A stretch of 37,074 bases of DNA from Enterobacteria phage SfV. The notes under the pieces were generated by a model. The model made no database searches and was not told the origin of the DNA. It was given only the letters and a program-made list of their open reading frames with translations. Location: sequence record NC_003444; one strand, given 5' to 3'. This document shows, piece after piece, positions 3,667 through 30,590 of this stretch. Position 1 is the stretch's first letter, and each line of letters begins with the position of its first letter. The position numbers were made by a program, and so were the translations under genes.

Positions 3667-4261
3667 CCGTGAAATCCGTTGTTACAGCGGTGAGGTGCGT
3701 GCTGAGAGGCATGACGATAACCCGGCGCACATTATCGGTTATGGATCGGTGTTTGACTGTCGTTCTGAGCTGATATTCGGTTCATTCCGCGAAATCATCC
3801 GGCCCGGCGCTTTTGACGATGTGCTTGGTGATGATGTACGCGCACTGTTTAACCACGATCCTAATTTTATTCTTGGGCGTAGTGCAGCAGGCACGCTGAA
3901 TCTCTCAGTTGATGAGCGCGGATTACGCTATGACATCCAGGCTCCGGAGACACAGACCATTCGTGATCTGGTGCTGGCCCCGATGCAACGTGGAGATATT
4001 AACCAGTCATCTTTCGCTTTCCGTGTCGCCCGTGACGGTGAGGAGTGGTATCAGGATGAGGACGGGGTTGTTATTCGCGAGATAACCCGCTTTTCCCGTC
4101 TGCTGGATGTCAGTCCTGTGACATATCCTGCCTATCAGGAGGCTGACTCGGCTGTTCGCTCCATGAAAGCATGGCAGGAGGCGCGCAACAGCGGCGCGCT
4201 ACAGAAAGCCATTAATCAACGTATGGCGCGTGAACGCGTCCTGACCCTTCTTAACGCGTAA
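3659..4261 (+). CDS. prohead maturation protease (HK97 S78-like)
   Basis: ORF 3602..4261; ATG 3659 preceded by GAGGG; placed between portal and major capsid gene. Confidence 0.8.
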   Translation: MNDREIRCYSGEVRAERHDDNPAHIIGYGSVFDCRSELIFGSFREIIRPGAFDDVLGDDVRALFNHDPNFILGRSAAGTLNLSVDERGLRYDIQAPETQTIRDLVLAPMQRGDINQSSFAFRVARDGEEWYQDEDGVVIREITRFSRLLDVSPVTYPAYQEADSAVRSMKAWQEARNSGALQKAINQRMARERVLTLLNA

Positions 4262-4271
4262 AGGAAACATC

Positions 4272-5501
4272 ATGAAACTGCATGAACTGAAACAGAAACG
4301 TAATACTATCGCAACTGACATGCGCGCCCTGAATGAAAAAATTGGTGATAACGCATGGACGGAAGAGCAGCGCACGGAGTGGAACAAAGCAAAATCCGAA
4401 CTGGAAGCGCTTGATGAACGAATTGCACGCGAAGAAGAACTGCGTCGTCAGGATCAGGCGTACATTGAAAGCAATGAGGAAGAGCAGCGTCAGAATCTTG
4501 ATCCGGAAAACAATTCGCAACAGGATGAGAAACGAGCTCAGGTTTTTGATAAGTGGATGCGTCACGGTGCCAGTGAGCTGACATCAGAAGAGCGAAAGGC
4601 GTTGCGTGAACTTCGTGCCCAGGGTGTAGCTCAGGATGAAAAGGGCGGATATACCGTACCAGAAACATTCCTGGCGAAAGTTGTTGAGAAGATGAAATCC
4701 TACGGTGGCATCGCCAGTGTGGCGCAGATTCTGACCACTTCTGACGGTCGCACCATGGAGTGGGCAACAGCTGATGGTACTTCCGAAGTTGGTGTTCTGC
4801 TGGGCGAAAATGAAGAAGCCGGTGAAGAAGACACCGATTTCGGTATGGGAAGTCTTGGGGCGCTCAAAATGACATCGAAAATCATTCGTGTGTCTAATGA
4901 GTTGCTGCAGGACAGCGCGATCGATATGGAAGCTTATCTTGCCCGTCGCATTGCTGAACGTATTGGTCGTGGTGAAGCCCGTTATCTGATTCAGGGGACG
5001 GGTGCTGGTACGCCTAAACAACCCAAAGGGCTGGCAGCATCAGTGACCGGCACAACACAGACTGCCGCGGCAAATGCGGTGAAGTGGCAGGAAATTCTGG
5101 CTCTGAAACACAGCATTGATCCTGCATATCGTCGCGGACCGAAATTCCGCCTGGCGTTTAACGATAATACGCTGAAACTGATCAGTGAGATGGAAGACGG
5201 TCAGGGACGCCCTTTATGGTTGCCGGATATTGTTGGTGTGGCACCTGCTTCAGTGTTGAATGTACCGTATGTCATTGATCAGGAAATTGATGATATCGGG
5301 GCGGGTAAAAAATTCATGTTCTGTGGTGACTTTGATCGCTTCATTATCCGTCGTGTGCGATACATGATTCTTAAACGTCTGGTTGAGCGTTACGCGGAAT
5401 ATGATCAGACCGGTTTTCTGGCCTTCCATCGTTTTGACTGTATCCTGGAAGACACCTCTGCCATTAAAGCGCTGGTGGGGAAAGGTAGCGTTGGTGGTTG
5501 A
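4272..5501 (+). CDS. major capsid protein (HK97 fold) with N-terminal coiled-coil scaffolding (delta) domain
   Basis: 409 aa; charged coiled-coil N-terminus (ELKQKRNTIATDMRALNEKI...) followed by capsid domain; follows the protease. Confidence 0.9.
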   Translation: MKLHELKQKRNTIATDMRALNEKIGDNAWTEEQRTEWNKAKSELEALDERIAREEELRRQDQAYIESNEEEQRQNLDPENNSQQDEKRAQVFDKWMRHGASELTSEERKALRELRAQGVAQDEKGGYTVPETFLAKVVEKMKSYGGIASVAQILTTSDGRTMEWATADGTSEVGVLLGENEEAGEEDTDFGMGSLGALKMTSKIIRVSNELLQDSAIDMEAYLARRIAERIGRGEARYLIQGTGAGTPKQPKGLAASVTGTTQTAAANAVKWQEILALKHSIDPAYRRGPKFRLAFNDNTLKLISEMEDGQGRPLWLPDIVGVAPASVLNVPYVIDQEIDDIGAGKKFMFCGDFDRFIIRRVRYMILKRLVERYAEYDQTGFLAFHRFDCILEDTSAIKALVGKGSVGG

Positions 5502-5526
5502 TTAGTCTTTTTACGTAATACAGCAC

Positions 5527-5569
5527 GCCGCGTAATGCGGTTTTTTTGTGCCCGCGTTCTGGCGGGCAC
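5527..5569 (+). terminator. post-capsid terminator-like hairpin plus U7 tract, followed by an 8-bp perfect hairpin
   Basis: Short GC stem 5528-5540 followed by T7 (5541-5547); then perfect stem gtgcccgc/gcgggcac (5548-5555 / 5562-5569) immediately before the SD of the next gene. Confidence 0.4.
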
Positions 5570-5579
5570 AGGAGGTTTT

Positions 5580-5903
5580 ATGCTGTTAAAAATGGAAGAG
5601 ATTAAGCTTCAGCTCCGTCTGGATGATGATTTCTCTGATGAAGATGAGTTGCTTGAACTGCTTGGTAAGGCCGCTCAGAGTCGAACGGAAAACTTCCTTA
5701 ACCGTAAGTTGTATGCAACCGCAGATGACAGGCCTGCGGATGATCCTGATGGGCTTGTGATATCTGATGATGTGAAGCTGGCACTTCTGCTACTTGTCAG
5801 CCATTTCTACGAAAACCGCTCAACGGTTACAGACGTTGAGAAAATGGAGTTGCCAATGAGTTTTAACTGGTTGGTTGCTCCTTATCGCCTTATACCACTA
5901 TGA
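5580..5903 (+). CDS. head-tail connector protein (gp6-like)
   Basis: ORF 5535..5903; ATG 5580 preceded by AGGAGG (5571-5576); size and position. Confidence 0.7.
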   Translation: MLLKMEEIKLQLRLDDDFSDEDELLELLGKAAQSRTENFLNRKLYATADDRPADDPDGLVISDDVKLALLLLVSHFYENRSTVTDVEKMELPMSFNWLVAPYRLIPL

Positions 5904-6310
5904 AAATTCGTCAGGCACAGACCAGCGCAACCTACATTCTGCCGGACCCCGGCGAACTGAATAAACGCGTCCTGATCCGCCTGCGGGTGGATATGCCCGC
6001 GGATAACTTTGGCGTGGAGCCTCAATACCCGGTTACGTTCCGGACATGGGCGAAGGTTATCCAGACCAGTGCCACCACCTGGCAGGAAACCGCGCAGACC
6101 GGGGACGCCATCACCCATTACATCACCATTCGTTACCGCCGGGGGATCACCACTGATTATGAGGTGGTCTGCGGTGACAGTGTGTACCGGGTGAAACGTC
6201 AGCGCGATCTGAACGGGGCGCGGCGTTTTCTGCTGCTGGAGTGTACGGAGCTGGGCGAATGTAGGCAGAGTCACGGAGGCAACAATGACGACTTCCTTTT
6301 TGCACGTTGA
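5900..6310 (+). CDS. head closure / head-tail joining protein
   Basis: 136-aa ORF, ATGA overlap with upstream gene; position in head-tail junction module. Confidence 0.6.
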   Translation: MKIRQAQTSATYILPDPGELNKRVLIRLRVDMPADNFGVEPQYPVTFRTWAKVIQTSATTWQETAQTGDAITHYITIRYRRGITTDYEVVCGDSVYRVKRQRDLNGARRFLLLECTELGECRQSHGGNNDDFLFAR

Positions 6311-26682: not shown

Positions 26683-27246
26683 ATGAGGCTAACCGTGGGT
26701 AAGCATCACTGGAAAGTAGAAAAACAGCCTGAGTGGTACGTGAAAGCTGTCAGAAAAACTATCGCGGCGTTGCCGGGGGGTTACGCTGAAGCTGCTGAGT
26801 GGCTGGATGTAACAGAGAACGCTTTATTCAACCGCCTTCGTGCAGATGGCGATCAGATTTTCCCGCTGGGATGGGCAATGATTTTACAGCGCGCGGCTGG
26901 CACTCACTACATTGCGGATGCTGTCGCACAGTCTGCTGGTGGGGTGTTTGTATCGCTTCCTGAAATTGAGGAAGTAGAGAACGCCGATATAAACCAGCGC
27001 CTGCTGGAAGTCATCGAACAGATCGGGAGTTACTCAAAGCAGATTCGTTCGGCAATCGAAGATGGGGTAGTGGAGCCACACGAGCAGACAGCAATTAATG
27101 ATGAGTTGTATCTGTCAATTTCGAAGCTCCAGGAGCATGCAGCACTGGTCTACAAAATCTTTTGCGCTCCAGAAAAGAGTGACGCCCGCGAGTGTGCAGC
27201 TCCGGGCGTCGTGGCGTTTTGTGTCTGTGGAGAAACTAACGCATGA
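26683..27246 (+). CDS. CII-like regulatory protein (phage 186-type CII family, tentative)
   Basis: 187-aa ORF immediately after cro; family assignment from memory only. Confidence 0.5.
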   Translation: MRLTVGKHHWKVEKQPEWYVKAVRKTIAALPGGYAEAAEWLDVTENALFNRLRADGDQIFPLGWAMILQRAAGTHYIADAVAQSAGGVFVSLPEIEEVENADINQRLLEVIEQIGSYSKQIRSAIEDGVVEPHEQTAINDELYLSISKLQEHAALVYKIFCAPEKSDARECAAPGVVAFCVCGETNA

Positions 27247-28079
27247 ACAGTTTAACGGCAAATAACCGTTTGTCGCAACAGCTGGTGGTCAGCGTCGCTG
27301 AACACCTGTTGTTACGGCATGAATGCAGATTACCAAATCACCTGGCTGTAAGTAACCACAGAGAACTTTACCTGACTGTGGGGGGCGAGTTGTGCAGGAA
27401 CTTAACCGCTGGTTTCGTGACGGAAGAGGACTTTATGTTCATGTTATTCGTTGGGAGCCAGAAACACAGCGCGTTATCTATCTTCGCAAAGACTACCCGC
27501 ATGAGTGCTTTAGTCCTTTGTGGAAATTCAGGCGTGATTTTGTTGAGTGTGAAGGACCACCAGCACATTGATTCTGCCATTCCGGGACGTTACACTGTTC
27601 AGGCACCTTATAAAGCGGGTGCCGGGATTGGCGTCCTGGAATTGATCAAGGCGATATATGACGCGCCAGCGTCTTTTTTATCGTCCGCATTTGCTCACAT
27701 CAAAGTTATGGTGGGCTGGGCGGGGGCATCGAAAGATGCGCCGGTTTCCTTGATCACCGGTTACGCCAACCCCGTTCAGTTCACCACCAGCGAAATTGCC
27801 GTTTCCGGTGGTGGAAGTATTTCACCGATCAAGGAGGCTGCCATCATGGCTACTGTCCCAGCCCTCACTCGTCTGAATGATGAAGACTTACATAAACTCA
27901 GTTATGTAACAACTGCACTACGTGCTCTGCGCAAGGTAACTCTTTCGGATCCCCAGGCGCATCAGGTTTTGGTAGAAACCCTTCTTAACTTGCAGGCTGA
28001 ACGTATTCGTCTGGCGGATAAGGCTAATTTTCATATTCACCGTCTCCTGAATATCAGCGGAGGGCATCGTCATGCTTAA
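27243..28079 (+). CDS. hypothetical protein (gene model uncertain)
   Basis: 278-codon ORF with ATGA coupling to the upstream gene; strong internal AAGGAGG-ATG at 27846; alternative-frame GTG ORF 27392..27571. Confidence 0.4.
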   Translation: MNSLTANNRLSQQLVVSVAEHLLLRHECRLPNHLAVSNHRELYLTVGGELCRNLTAGFVTEEDFMFMLFVGSQKHSALSIFAKTTRMSALVLCGNSGVILLSVKDHQHIDSAIPGRYTVQAPYKAGAGIGVLELIKAIYDAPASFLSSAFAHIKVMVGWAGASKDAPVSLITGYANPVQFTTSEIAVSGGGSISPIKEAAIMATVPALTRLNDEDLHKLSYVTTALRALRKVTLSDPQAHQVLVETLLNLQAERIRLADKANFHIHRLLNISGGHRHA

Positions 28080-28308
28080 TCCGTTGAGCCTCAATATTCG
28101 CCGTTTACTTCAGCGTAAAAAAACATCAATTCCTACAGTTGGGCAGTGGTACACCACGCCTGCAGGGCATGTTCTACGTGTTAGCCTGGTTGACCGTGAA
28201 TGTCAGAAAGTGATTTGTGAACCGCTGGGCCGTAATTACCGCGTCAGTATGCCGCTTATAACCTTTCGCTCCGAAAAAAACATGAAGCATCTCGGAGGTG
28301 CAGCATGA
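28072..28308 (+). CDS. hypothetical protein
   Basis: 78-aa ORF overlapping neighbours at both ends; no recognisable motif. Confidence 0.45.
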   Translation: MLNPLSLNIRRLLQRKKTSIPTVGQWYTTPAGHVLRVSLVDRECQKVICEPLGRNYRVSMPLITFRSEKNMKHLGGAA

Positions 28309-29123
28309 GTATGGAGCTGATGGTTAAAGCGATGAAAATTCGAGTGGGTAATCCATTGCGAAAACTGGTTCTGATCAAGCTGGCTGATAATGCCAGCGAT
28401 CAGGGTGAGTGCTGGCCCAGCTATCAGCATATCGCTGATCAGTGCGAGATTAGCAAACGTTCTGTGATGAATCATATTGCGGCCCTCTGTGAGTCCGGGC
28501 TGGTAAAAAAAGTCACCCGGAAAGGTGAAAAAGGTAACTCAAGTAATATCTATCTCCTTCATCTGGATGGTGCAGGAGATTCACTAGGGGGTAGTGCAAA
28601 TAATTCACTATCTGGTGCAGCAAATTCACCAGGTAGTGCAGGAGTTGCACCAGGGGGTAGTGCAGGAGATTCACCCAGAACCAGTCACTCTTTTGAACCA
28701 GTCAAAGAACCAGTCAATGAACCAATAGCTGTTGGTGCATCAGTTGATGAGTCCGTGCGAGTTCGTTCAAACCGACCGGAATACTCTCCGGAGTTTGAGC
28801 AGGCATGGCTGGCATATCCCAAACGTGCTGGTGGCAATTCAAAATCTGCAGCCTTCAAAGCCTGGAAAGCCCGTTTGAACGAGGGAGTAAACCCCGAAAC
28901 CATGCTGGAAGGTGTGAAACGCTACGCGGGCTGGGTATCTGCGATGGGCAATAGCGGCACACAATTTGTGAAACAGGCTGTCACGTTCTTTGGTCCAGAT
29001 CGTCATTTCGAAGAATCCTGGGAAGTTCCTGCGGTATCTGCAGCCAGACGCGAGGACCCGTACTTCAAAGCCAGTTACGACAACGTGGACTACAGCCAGA
29101 TCCCGGCAGGATTCAGGGGGTGA
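28305..29123 (+). CDS. replication initiation protein (lambda O-like, N-terminal HTH)
   Basis: 272 aa; N-terminal HTH replisome-organiser-like region; internal repeat-encoded low-complexity linker (iterons); position after cII. Confidence 0.7.
   Translation: MSMELMVKAMKIRVGNPLRKLVLIKLADNASDQGECWPSYQHIADQCEISKRSVMNHIAALCESGLVKKVTRKGEKGNSSNIYLLHLDGAGDSLGGSANNSLSGAANSPGSAGVAPGGSAGDSPRTSHSFEPVKEPVNEPIAVGASVDESVRVRSNRPEYSPEFEQAWLAYPKRAGGNSKSAAFKAWKARLNEGVNPETMLEGVKRYAGWVSAMGNSGTQFVKQAVTFFGPDRHFEESWEVPAVSAARREDPYFKASYDNVDYSQIPAGFRG
28569..28716. repeat. iteron-like direct repeats inside the replication gene (candidate origin)
   Basis: ggtgcaggagattcac at 28569 and 28660; gggggtagtgca at ~28587 and ~28654; gaaccagtca three times (28678, 28695, 28707). 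Confidence 0.5.
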
Positions 29124-29614
29124 TCATGAGTCTTTTGAATGAAGTTCAGAAATTCATTGAAGCCCATCCGGGGTGTACTTCCGGAGACATTGCGGATGCT
29201 TTTGCAGGTTACTCACGGCAGCGCGTTCTGCAGTCAGCAAGCAAGTTACGTCAGAGTGGGCGTGTGGTTCACCGTTGTGAAGAGGATACACGCAGACATT
29301 TCCCGCGCCTGACTGAGAGAGCGCAGGAGCCGGAACCACAACCAGTTCGTGAAACCAGACCTGTGCGCAATTTCTATGTCGGCACTAACGATCCCCGGGT
29401 GATTTTGTGCCTGACCCGCCAGGCTGAAGAACTGGAGTCAAGGGGCTTATACCGTCGTGCTGCAACGGTGTGGATGGCGGCATTCCGTGAAAGCCACTCC
29501 CAGCAAGAGCGAAACAATTTTCTTGCGCGTCGTGAGCGGTGCTTACGGAAAAGCAGCAAGCGCGCTGCATCGGGTGATGAGTGGTATCTGTCAGGGAATT
29601 ACGTGGGGGCTTAA
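29120..29614 (+). CDS. PerC-like regulator domain protein
   Basis: 164 aa; C-terminal AEELESRGLYRRAATVWMAAF...RRERCL resembles the PerC-family signature from memory. Confidence 0.45.
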   Translation: MIMSLLNEVQKFIEAHPGCTSGDIADAFAGYSRQRVLQSASKLRQSGRVVHRCEEDTRRHFPRLTERAQEPEPQPVRETRPVRNFYVGTNDPRVILCLTRQAEELESRGLYRRAATVWMAAFRESHSQQERNNFLARRERCLRKSSKRAASGDEWYLSGNYVGA

Positions 29615-30267
29615 TGAGTAATAAATATTGCCAGGCGCTGGTGGAACTGCGGAACAAACCAGCCCATGAACTGAAGGAAGTGGGTGATCAGTGGCGCACG
29701 CCGGACAACATTTTCTGGGGAATTAACACCCTGTTTGGCCCGTTTGTTCTGGATCTGTTCACTGACGGTGATAACGCCAAATGTGCCGCGTATTACACGG
29801 CGGAAGACAACGCGCTGGCGCATGACTGGTCAGAACGCCTTGCGGAGCTTAAAGGTGCTGCCTTTGGTAATCCTCCATACAGCCGCGCCAGTCAGCATGA
29901 GGGGCAATACATCACCGGCATGCGTTACATCATGAAACATGCCAGTGCCATGCGTGATAAGGGCGGGCGCTATGTTTTCCTGATCAAAGCTGCCACCAGC
30001 GAAGTGTGGTGGCCGGAAGATGCAGATCATATTGCTTTTATTCGCGGGCGTATTGGTTTTGAACTGCCTGTCTGGTTTATCCCGAAAGACGAGAAGCAGG
30101 TACCGACAGGAGCTTTTTTCGCTGGTGCTATTGCTGTTTTTGACAAGACCTGGAAGGGACCGGCAATCAGCTACATCGGGCGCGATGAACTTGAGGCATG
30201 TGGTGAGGCGTTTCTGGCGCAGGTTCGCCAGCAGGCGGAAAAACTGGTCAGGGAGATGGTGGCATGA
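29614..30267 (+). CDS. phage-type DNA N6-adenine methyltransferase (Dam-like)
   Basis: ORF 29581..30267; ATG 29614 overlaps upstream stop (TAATG); catalytic NPPY motif (FGNPPYS). Confidence 0.8.
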   Translation: MSNKYCQALVELRNKPAHELKEVGDQWRTPDNIFWGINTLFGPFVLDLFTDGDNAKCAAYYTAEDNALAHDWSERLAELKGAAFGNPPYSRASQHEGQYITGMRYIMKHASAMRDKGGRYVFLIKAATSEVWWPEDADHIAFIRGRIGFELPVWFIPKDEKQVPTGAFFAGAIAVFDKTWKGPAISYIGRDELEACGEAFLAQVRQQAEKLVREMVA

Positions 30268-30590
30268 CGACGTTAACTCAATGCCAGCAGCAGGTGCTGG
30301 ATATGCTGATTTCTTATCAGAAAGAACGTGGCTTCCCGCCAACCAATCAGGAGGTGGCAACCATGCTGGGATACCGTTCAGTGAATGCAGCGGTGGAGCA
30401 TCTTCGCGCACTGGAGAAAAAAGGCATCATCACGATAAAGCGTGGCGTGGCCCGGGGGATCACGCTTCATACCGCGGTGAAGGACGACGACAGCGAGGCT
30501 GTCGGGATTATCCGCTCACTGCTTGCCGGTGAGGAAAACGCCAGGCTGCGTGCAACCCACTGGTTACATAAGAGGGGCCTGAAAGTATGA
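30264..30590 (+). CDS. LexA N-terminal DNA-binding-domain protein lacking a peptidase domain
   Basis: 108 aa; residues 4-70 align by eye with the LexA winged-helix DBD; no S24 domain; ATGA-coupled on both sides. Confidence 0.7.
   Translation: MTTLTQCQQQVLDMLISYQKERGFPPTNQEVATMLGYRSVNAAVEHLRALEKKGIITIKRGVARGITLHTAVKDDDSEAVGIIRSLLAGEENARLRATHWLHKRGLKV

Follow-up and report, generated by a model that had tools for sequence, protein, structure and literature searches.

In the early region of Enterobacteria phage SfV, a small gene with a PerC-like domain lies between the replication initiator gene and a Dam-like methyltransferase gene. The locus raises the question of whether its product serves the lysogen as a virulence regulator, takes part in phage DNA replication, or acts in some other way during phage development. 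We addressed this question in the 37,074 nucleotides of the SfV sequence record (NC_003444), called the window below; the loci compared with it carry L numbers.

The gene, its operon and its family

The ORF list contains a plus-strand frame of 164 amino acids running from a GTG codon at 29120 to 29614. The true start of the gene is most likely the ATG at 29126, which gives 162 codons and a stop (29126–29614, plus strand), because all 39 aligned homologues, diverged ones included, begin with MS or a near equivalent. The upstream GTG at 29120 is an alternative start and leads to the 164-residue form annotated in RefSeq. The upstream neighbor on the same strand is the replication initiator gene rep (28305–29123), recognized by HTH_36 (E = 1.8e-11) and by a full-length match to PHROG 270 (E = 1.7e-88). 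The downstream neighbor, also on the plus strand, encodes a phage Dam-type N6-adenine methyltransferase (29614–30267; Pfam Dam, 1.1e-45; TIGR01712, 7.8e-77). The initial annotation had placed the frame 29120–29614 between a replication initiator and a Dam-like methyltransferase, and both its coordinates and its neighbors are right.

The C-terminal half of the protein had been assigned to the PerC family from a motif, and the Pfam scan confirms this assignment. PerC (PF06069) matches residues 100–152 of the 164-residue form with 38.9 bits (E = 1.1e-9), above the curated gathering cut-off of 22.6 bits and far beyond chance, and PHROG 1324 covers the full length of the protein (E about 1e-77). 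The window contains no second PerC-domain ORF. Since the protein is also 95% identical over 164 amino acids to E. coli K-12 YfdN (b2357), the gene is, by its sequence, the SfV-type orthologue of K-12 yfdN, a two-domain form of the PerC family. The family assignment of yfdN is already known from RefSeq, PHROGs and the literature: RefSeq uses the name ‘PerC family transcriptional regulator’, often with the gene name yfdN, and yfdN has been termed ‘the K12 unique PerC homologue’ (PMC5931665). The K-12 protein is still annotated as uncharacterized, and our literature search found no experiment on any YfdN-type protein.

Both ends of the gene overlap or abut its neighbors in a way typical of translational coupling. 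At the rep/yfdN junction (29115–29128), a Shine-Dalgarno sequence AGGGGG (29115–29120) is followed by the rep stop codon TGA (29121–29123) and the yfdN ATG (29126–29128). At the other end, the stop/start overlap TAATG (29612–29616) couples yfdN to dam. In diverged loci, rep and the yfdN-like gene overlap at this point by 4 nt (ATGA), and 1- or 4-nt overlaps likewise join the yfdN-like gene to the next one. The order of genes in this part of SfV is cII-like, Ash-family protein, small ORF, rep, yfdN, dam, LexA-N-like, RusA, KilA-N, DUF968/HNH and Q, and a scan of the plus strand from 28300 to 30300 found no promoter-like or terminator-like site. Coupled at both ends and lacking a promoter-like site of its own, yfdN is a member of the rightward early operon.

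Two other members of this operon deserve mention. The Ash-family protein between the cII-like gene and rep has 278 amino acids (27243–28079), and papers on Stx-phage typing report Ash-class proteins in the Eru6, Eru7 and Eru9 regions with no function given. The LexA-N-like protein (30264–30590) consists of 108 amino acids with the LexA DNA-binding domain only and no S24 peptidase domain. It keeps the same slot in many diverged loci and could be a non-cleavable LexA mimic acting at SOS boxes.

The gene is widespread. DNA with 95–99% nucleotide identity to yfdN is present in 2668 of 5426 complete E. coli genomes, which is about half. The rep-yfdN-dam block is 97–99% identical in mEp460, SfII and a group of Stx2a/Stx2c phages, and Stx-phage typing defines it as the ‘Eru6’ replication region, whose proteins are unstudied (PMC8951638). 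A scan of genome contigs with the single SfV protein found 3 loci, and a search of 1.8 billion representative proteins yielded 100 relatives, among which full-length two-domain proteins reach down to 25% identity; the architecture is kept at 25–46%. In the family alignment of 39 sequences, Leu103, Arg111 and Ala112 are invariant and Ala100, Ala113, Arg136 and Cys139 nearly so, and every one of the 39 matches PF06069 at E up to 0.01. Purifying selection acts on both domains of the protein, with dN/dS values of 0.1–0.4 in each.

The K-12 copy lies in the cryptic prophage CPS-53/KpLE1 with the same neighbors, an initiator fragment (yfdO) and a methylase fragment (yfdM). This prophage is decayed, whereas the SfV module is intact. 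CPS-53 (locus L148, E. coli K-12 2466369–2476583) combines the gtr-type serotype-conversion genes yfdGHI with the yfdO-yfdN-yfdM fragment of an SfV-type early operon, and is a remnant of an SfV-like serotype-converting phage type. A further match, a 326-bp contig (L147) in an assembly of Fredinandcohnia humi (Bacillota), is 97% identical to the 3' part of yfdN and is probably a contamination of that assembly.

Domain architecture and comparison with PerC, Pch and ANR proteins

AlphaFold2 models built on the 39-sequence alignment reached a pLDDT of 82 and divide the protein into four parts. Residues 1–60 (29126–29305) form a predicted winged-helix domain with three helices (residues 3–13, 19–25 and 31–44) and a beta-hairpin wing (residues 47–60). 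This part shares its fold and a weak sequence similarity with the BlaI/MecI and MarR repressors, and 22 of the 39 family members match a MarR PHROG, but the dimerization and sensor domains of those repressors are missing from the YfdN-type protein. Residues 61–89 (29306–29392) are a disordered, acidic and proline-rich linker with a pLDDT of about 50 and a mean charge of −1.5; the alignment is gapped here, and homologues differ in both length and sequence. The PerC-family core follows at residues 90–143 (29393–29554), with helices predicted at 90–105, 109–122 and 126–143 and the motif A..LE..GL.RRAA.VW..AF ... R..CL. The C-terminal tail (residues 144–162; 29555–29611) is modeled with low confidence (pLDDT 43–68) and ends in L.G.Y.G, whose residues Leu155, Gly157, Tyr159 and Gly161 are kept in 64–89% of the family.

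The PerC core is modeled as a three-helix module of 1.5 TPR-like repeats, with the helix-turn-helix repeat fold of TPR proteins, and the closest structural matches of the C-domain model are peptide-binding TPR and MIT modules. A Pfam scan at E up to 0.1 gave no TPR family match, and a sequence search of the PDB with the single SfV protein gave no match. Judging from the model, the core may be a TPR-like protein-binding module, a small three-helix fold with many look-alikes. Our literature search found no paper linking PerC to TPR, and the link comes from the predicted model only.

YfdN has its three-helix core, with the pattern LE.(K/R)GLYRRAA..W ... R..CLRK, in common with PerC of the EPEC pEAF plasmid and with PchA, PchB and PchC of EHEC prophages. 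In a BLASTP comparison, residues 7–50 of a group-1 Pch protein from an EHEC prophage (104 aa) align to SfV residues 100–143 with 43% identity over 44 aa (E = 2e-8). In this alignment, AEELESRGLYRRAATVW...RRERCLRK of SfV is paired with AECLEKKGLYRRAAERW...KRAECLRK of Pch, and the core motif is present in both. The sharing is limited to the core, which is N-terminal in Pch and followed by a different C-terminal extension. PerC and Pch are single-domain proteins without a winged helix, whereas YfdN, with 162 aa, adds an N-terminal winged helix and a linker. The genes are also placed differently: the pch gene that we examined is a separate unit downstream of the lysis genes, whereas yfdN is coupled inside the early-right operon.

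What PerC-family proteins do elsewhere is variable. The mechanism of PerC has been called ‘largely elusive’ in a review, in which Pch is reported to act on H-NS-bound DNA and DNA binding by PerC is disputed (PMC6094958). PchD and PchE affect ler little or not at all (PMC5931665). We considered whether these two proteins are of the YfdN type and rejected the idea, as the primers used to clone them specify other N-termini; the negative ler results published for them are thus not directly applicable to YfdN. PerC-like proteins from chromosomal islands leave LEE1 unaffected or repress it, and for one that represses LEE1 the authors propose an ANR-like character (PMC11773190).

The ANR family (Aar, Rnr and Cnr) is a comparable group, a small module with three alpha-helices as predicted for the SfV core (PMC4983702). 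The NCBIfam ANR model (NF033650) is matched by 27 of the 39 family members at E up to 0.01 (best E = 4e-9); the SfV protein itself scores 24.2 bits, below the 32-bit cut-off. ANR proteins bind AraC-family activators by protein-protein contact (PMC4983702) and, in a statement cited in PMC11773190, also act on H-NS. In the ORFs scanned from 21.7 to 33.6 kb there was no match to an AraC-family model. Unlike the ANR proteins, the YfdN-type protein has no AraC-family neighbor and carries the extra winged-helix domain.

Candidate functions of the YfdN-type protein

The predicted architecture and the operon context lead us to favor, tentatively, an accessory regulator of early lytic growth, whose winged helix binds DNA and whose PerC core binds a protein partner; this account may well be correct, if by a little less than an even chance. 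YfdN would be made early in lytic growth or after prophage induction, from the rightward early operon, with its translation coupled to that of its neighbors rep and dam. In CFT073, yfdN stands among the nitric-oxide-responsive genes listed in one study (value 12.61), beside other prophage genes (PMC5320621). The winged helix (residues 1–60) would bind DNA, while the PerC module (residues 90–143), carried on the flexible acidic linker, would grip a protein partner as an adaptor. By analogy with the Pch and ANR proteins, the partner is most plausibly a host nucleoid or transcription protein, either H-NS/Hha or an AraC-type activator, and the outcome would be a shift of transcription during phage development. 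The analysis shows the homology, the predicted folds, the operon structure, purifying selection and the optional presence of the gene; that the protein binds DNA, which partner it has and in which direction it shifts transcription are inferred.

A different early function, that of a counter-exclusion or host-takeover factor of the lambda Ren type shielding the phage from exclusion such as that by RexAB of a resident prophage, is possible but unlikely. The family aligns to a profile of lambda Ren relatives with an hhalign probability of 71% (E = 3.6e-5), from residue 1 of both and over 59 columns, and 8 of the 39 members match PHROG 142 ‘Ren-like exclusion protein’ (best E = 2.4e-5; SfV protein, 1e-3). 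The positions agree as well. Lambda ren directly follows the replication genes, as SfV yfdN follows rep, and in locus L020 a homologue stands directly behind a Phage_lambda_P gene, just as ren does in lambda. An optional, cassette-like distribution is moreover typical of accessory and counter-defence genes. These similarities suggest that the YfdN N-domain and Ren are related winged helices in the same slot. However, the similarity is moderate and concerns a generic winged helix, as the MarR PHROG matches described above indicate. Lambda Ren, with 96 aa, lacks a PerC domain and is remotely similar to YfdN in its N-terminal 59 residues only, and a PADLOC scan reported nothing relevant for YfdN.

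The initial annotation had suggested a second lysogenic-conversion function for the gene, and the context does not bear this out. A conversion regulator like PerC or PchABC would be expressed from the prophage and would activate a host virulence regulon. The Pfam family shared with PerC and Pch, the core motif shared with group-1 Pch, and the O-antigen conversion genes that SfV already has are in keeping with such a role. In one study, yfdN was deleted from a K-12 ler reporter strain before Pch homologues were tested, which suggests that the authors saw yfdN as a possible confounder (PMC5931665). Against a conversion role, members of the family outside group 1 either fail to activate ler or repress it (PMC5931665, PMC11773190). 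The early-operon context also argues against a conversion gene expressed in the lysogen: yfdN lies inside an early-right lytic operon with no promoter-like site of its own, whereas pch stands separately after the lysis genes. The gene is common in E. coli, K-12 included. Shigella, moreover, is not known to carry LEE. We therefore consider a PerC-like conversion function improbable.

The other proposal of the initial annotation, a replication accessory protein in place of lambda P, fits the position of the gene and the lack of a recognizable loader in the phage; it does not fit a gene that is optional and has no similarity to P. Such a protein would bridge the initiator to host DnaB/DnaC in a replication-linked, non-essential role, possibly through contact with the conserved tail at the C-terminus of the initiator. 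In SfV and most diverged loci, yfdN directly follows the initiator gene and is translationally coupled to it. At 31–46% identity, the diverged loci still show an initiator and then a yfdN-like gene with the ATGA overlap, with no loader between them, and the initiators are of the HTH_36/Phg_2220_C type or have a lambda-O-like C-terminal domain. Pfam and PHROG scans recognized no helicase, loader or primase in the early regions, and the resemblance of the modeled PerC core to TPR modules that bind C-terminal peptides would suit contact with a tail. The tight adjacency to the initiator could reflect a role of this kind.

The initiator tail merits description. The sequence DYSxIPxGFRG forms the last 11 rep codons in the window (29088–29120) and also occurs in L004, L008, L009, L014, L016–L019 and L023. 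A pattern scan of viral contigs found it in 120 loci, always at ORF ends, and a YfdN-like gene follows in 113 of these 120. The tail is kept on otherwise different initiator bodies (Phg_2220_C type and lambda-O-C-terminal type), and its codons vary synonymously, which places the conservation at the protein level. A host replication protein could dock on this peptide. Docking to the TPR-like PerC core is disfavored, because the tail is kept in loci without a yfdN-like gene and the two proteins shuffle independently.

Comparison of closely related initiators argues against an obligatory link. The initiators of L099 and L138 are 97% identical and those of L133 and L083 94% identical, but L138 and L083 have the gene and L099 and L133 do not. 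In the latter two loci, the gene directly coupled to rep is one for a C5 methylase or a LexA-like protein, and the 9–10 kb examined contain no YfdN-like ORF. Near-identical initiators also precede widely differing YfdN-like proteins, indicating that the two do not co-evolve. In phage cdtI, whose initiator is 98% identical at the nucleotide level, yfdN has an in-frame deletion of 132 of its 162 codons (396 nt, codons 27–158) that leaves a 30-codon mini-ORF and preserves the coupling to dam. Phage cdtI is reportedly an inducible prophage, to judge from the title of a 2007 report, and table 1 of PMC8065619 lists it as ‘induced from bacteria’. Two reservations apply to the absence of the gene: YfdN could come in trans from a helper prophage, and the prophages represented by the viral contigs are untested.

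The positions of other homologues also speak against a P-like role. A distant two-domain homologue directly follows a true lambda-P gene in L020, and others follow RecT or lie in a satellite-like island with an integrase and AlpA. YfdN has no similarity to lambda P or O (BLASTP E above 0.4 against P) and matches no helicase-loader model (Phage_lambda_P, DnaC and others) in Pfam, PHROG or NCBIfam. It thus resembles lambda P in its position after the initiator gene, but unlike P it is not obligatorily linked to the initiator. On balance, yfdN is an optional cassette outside the core replication machinery. A P-like role is about as doubtful as a conversion role, and both are disfavored.

Several observations on the region stand beside this comparison. 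The mini-ORF allele of 30–32 codons recurs, being found in phage cdtI (L024, 4001–4093) and in L069, L078, L127, L131 and L144, and the same remnant allele is present in 5 of the 120 viral contigs. The deletion is exact and leaves the overlaps at both ends intact, as though to maintain translational coupling from rep to dam. Inside the initiator gene (window 28570–28674) are five copies of a 15-bp iteron, GTGCA-N5-TKCAC, spaced 21–24 bp apart. None occurs elsewhere in the window (chance expectation, 0.22). This array is probably the phage origin, placed as in lambda O, and phage cdtI has one extra 66-nt repeat unit in it. In Stx2a_WGPS2 (L012), the phage that serves as representative of the Eru6 type of Stx phages, IS629 is inserted in yfdN (4226–6027). 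We considered this insertion as a natural knockout and found it uninformative, because a strain with intact yfdN is equally poorly inducible (PMC6256406) and the IS element would be polar on Q.

The adjacent methylase suggests, lastly, a controller of the downstream DNA methyltransferase that sets its timing or targeting, like the C proteins of restriction-modification systems. Unrelated methylase families do turn up in the following gene position, with start codons that overlap (Dam PF05869, MT-A70, D12 class and, in one case, a C5 methylase behind the Dam gene). A controller role is nevertheless very improbable: in L004, L019 and phage SfIV the gene has no adjacent methylase (PMC3851460), in L099 and L103 a methylase directly follows rep without yfdN, and the region behind the replication genes is mosaic in general. 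The same methylase classes (Dam PF05869, MT-A70, D12 class and C5) share the coupled slot in L008, L009, L018, L022, L023, L099 and L103, and whether this slot follows a yfdN-like gene or rep, its content is a case of non-orthologous replacement.

Implications for the PerC family

The accessory early-lytic regulator that we favor can be given a more specific form. On the basis of the predicted folds, YfdN-type proteins might be DNA-tethered adaptors that capture or neutralize a host silencer or activator, such as H-NS/Hha or an AraC-type protein like Shigella VirF. In this specific form the proposal is rather unlikely to be right. If true, yfdN would remodel transcription of the host or the prophage each time the early operon is switched on, and PerC and Pch would work by protein capture and not by direct promoter binding.

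The two-domain YfdN is a very common protein: Shigella serotype-converting phages and the ‘Eru6’ Stx phages carry it, as do about half of the complete E. coli genomes. Its occurrence as an optional cassette, together with a Ren-like winged helix and a TPR-like, ANR-related core as predicted, narrows the options for its function and could bear on the mechanism of PerC and Pch.
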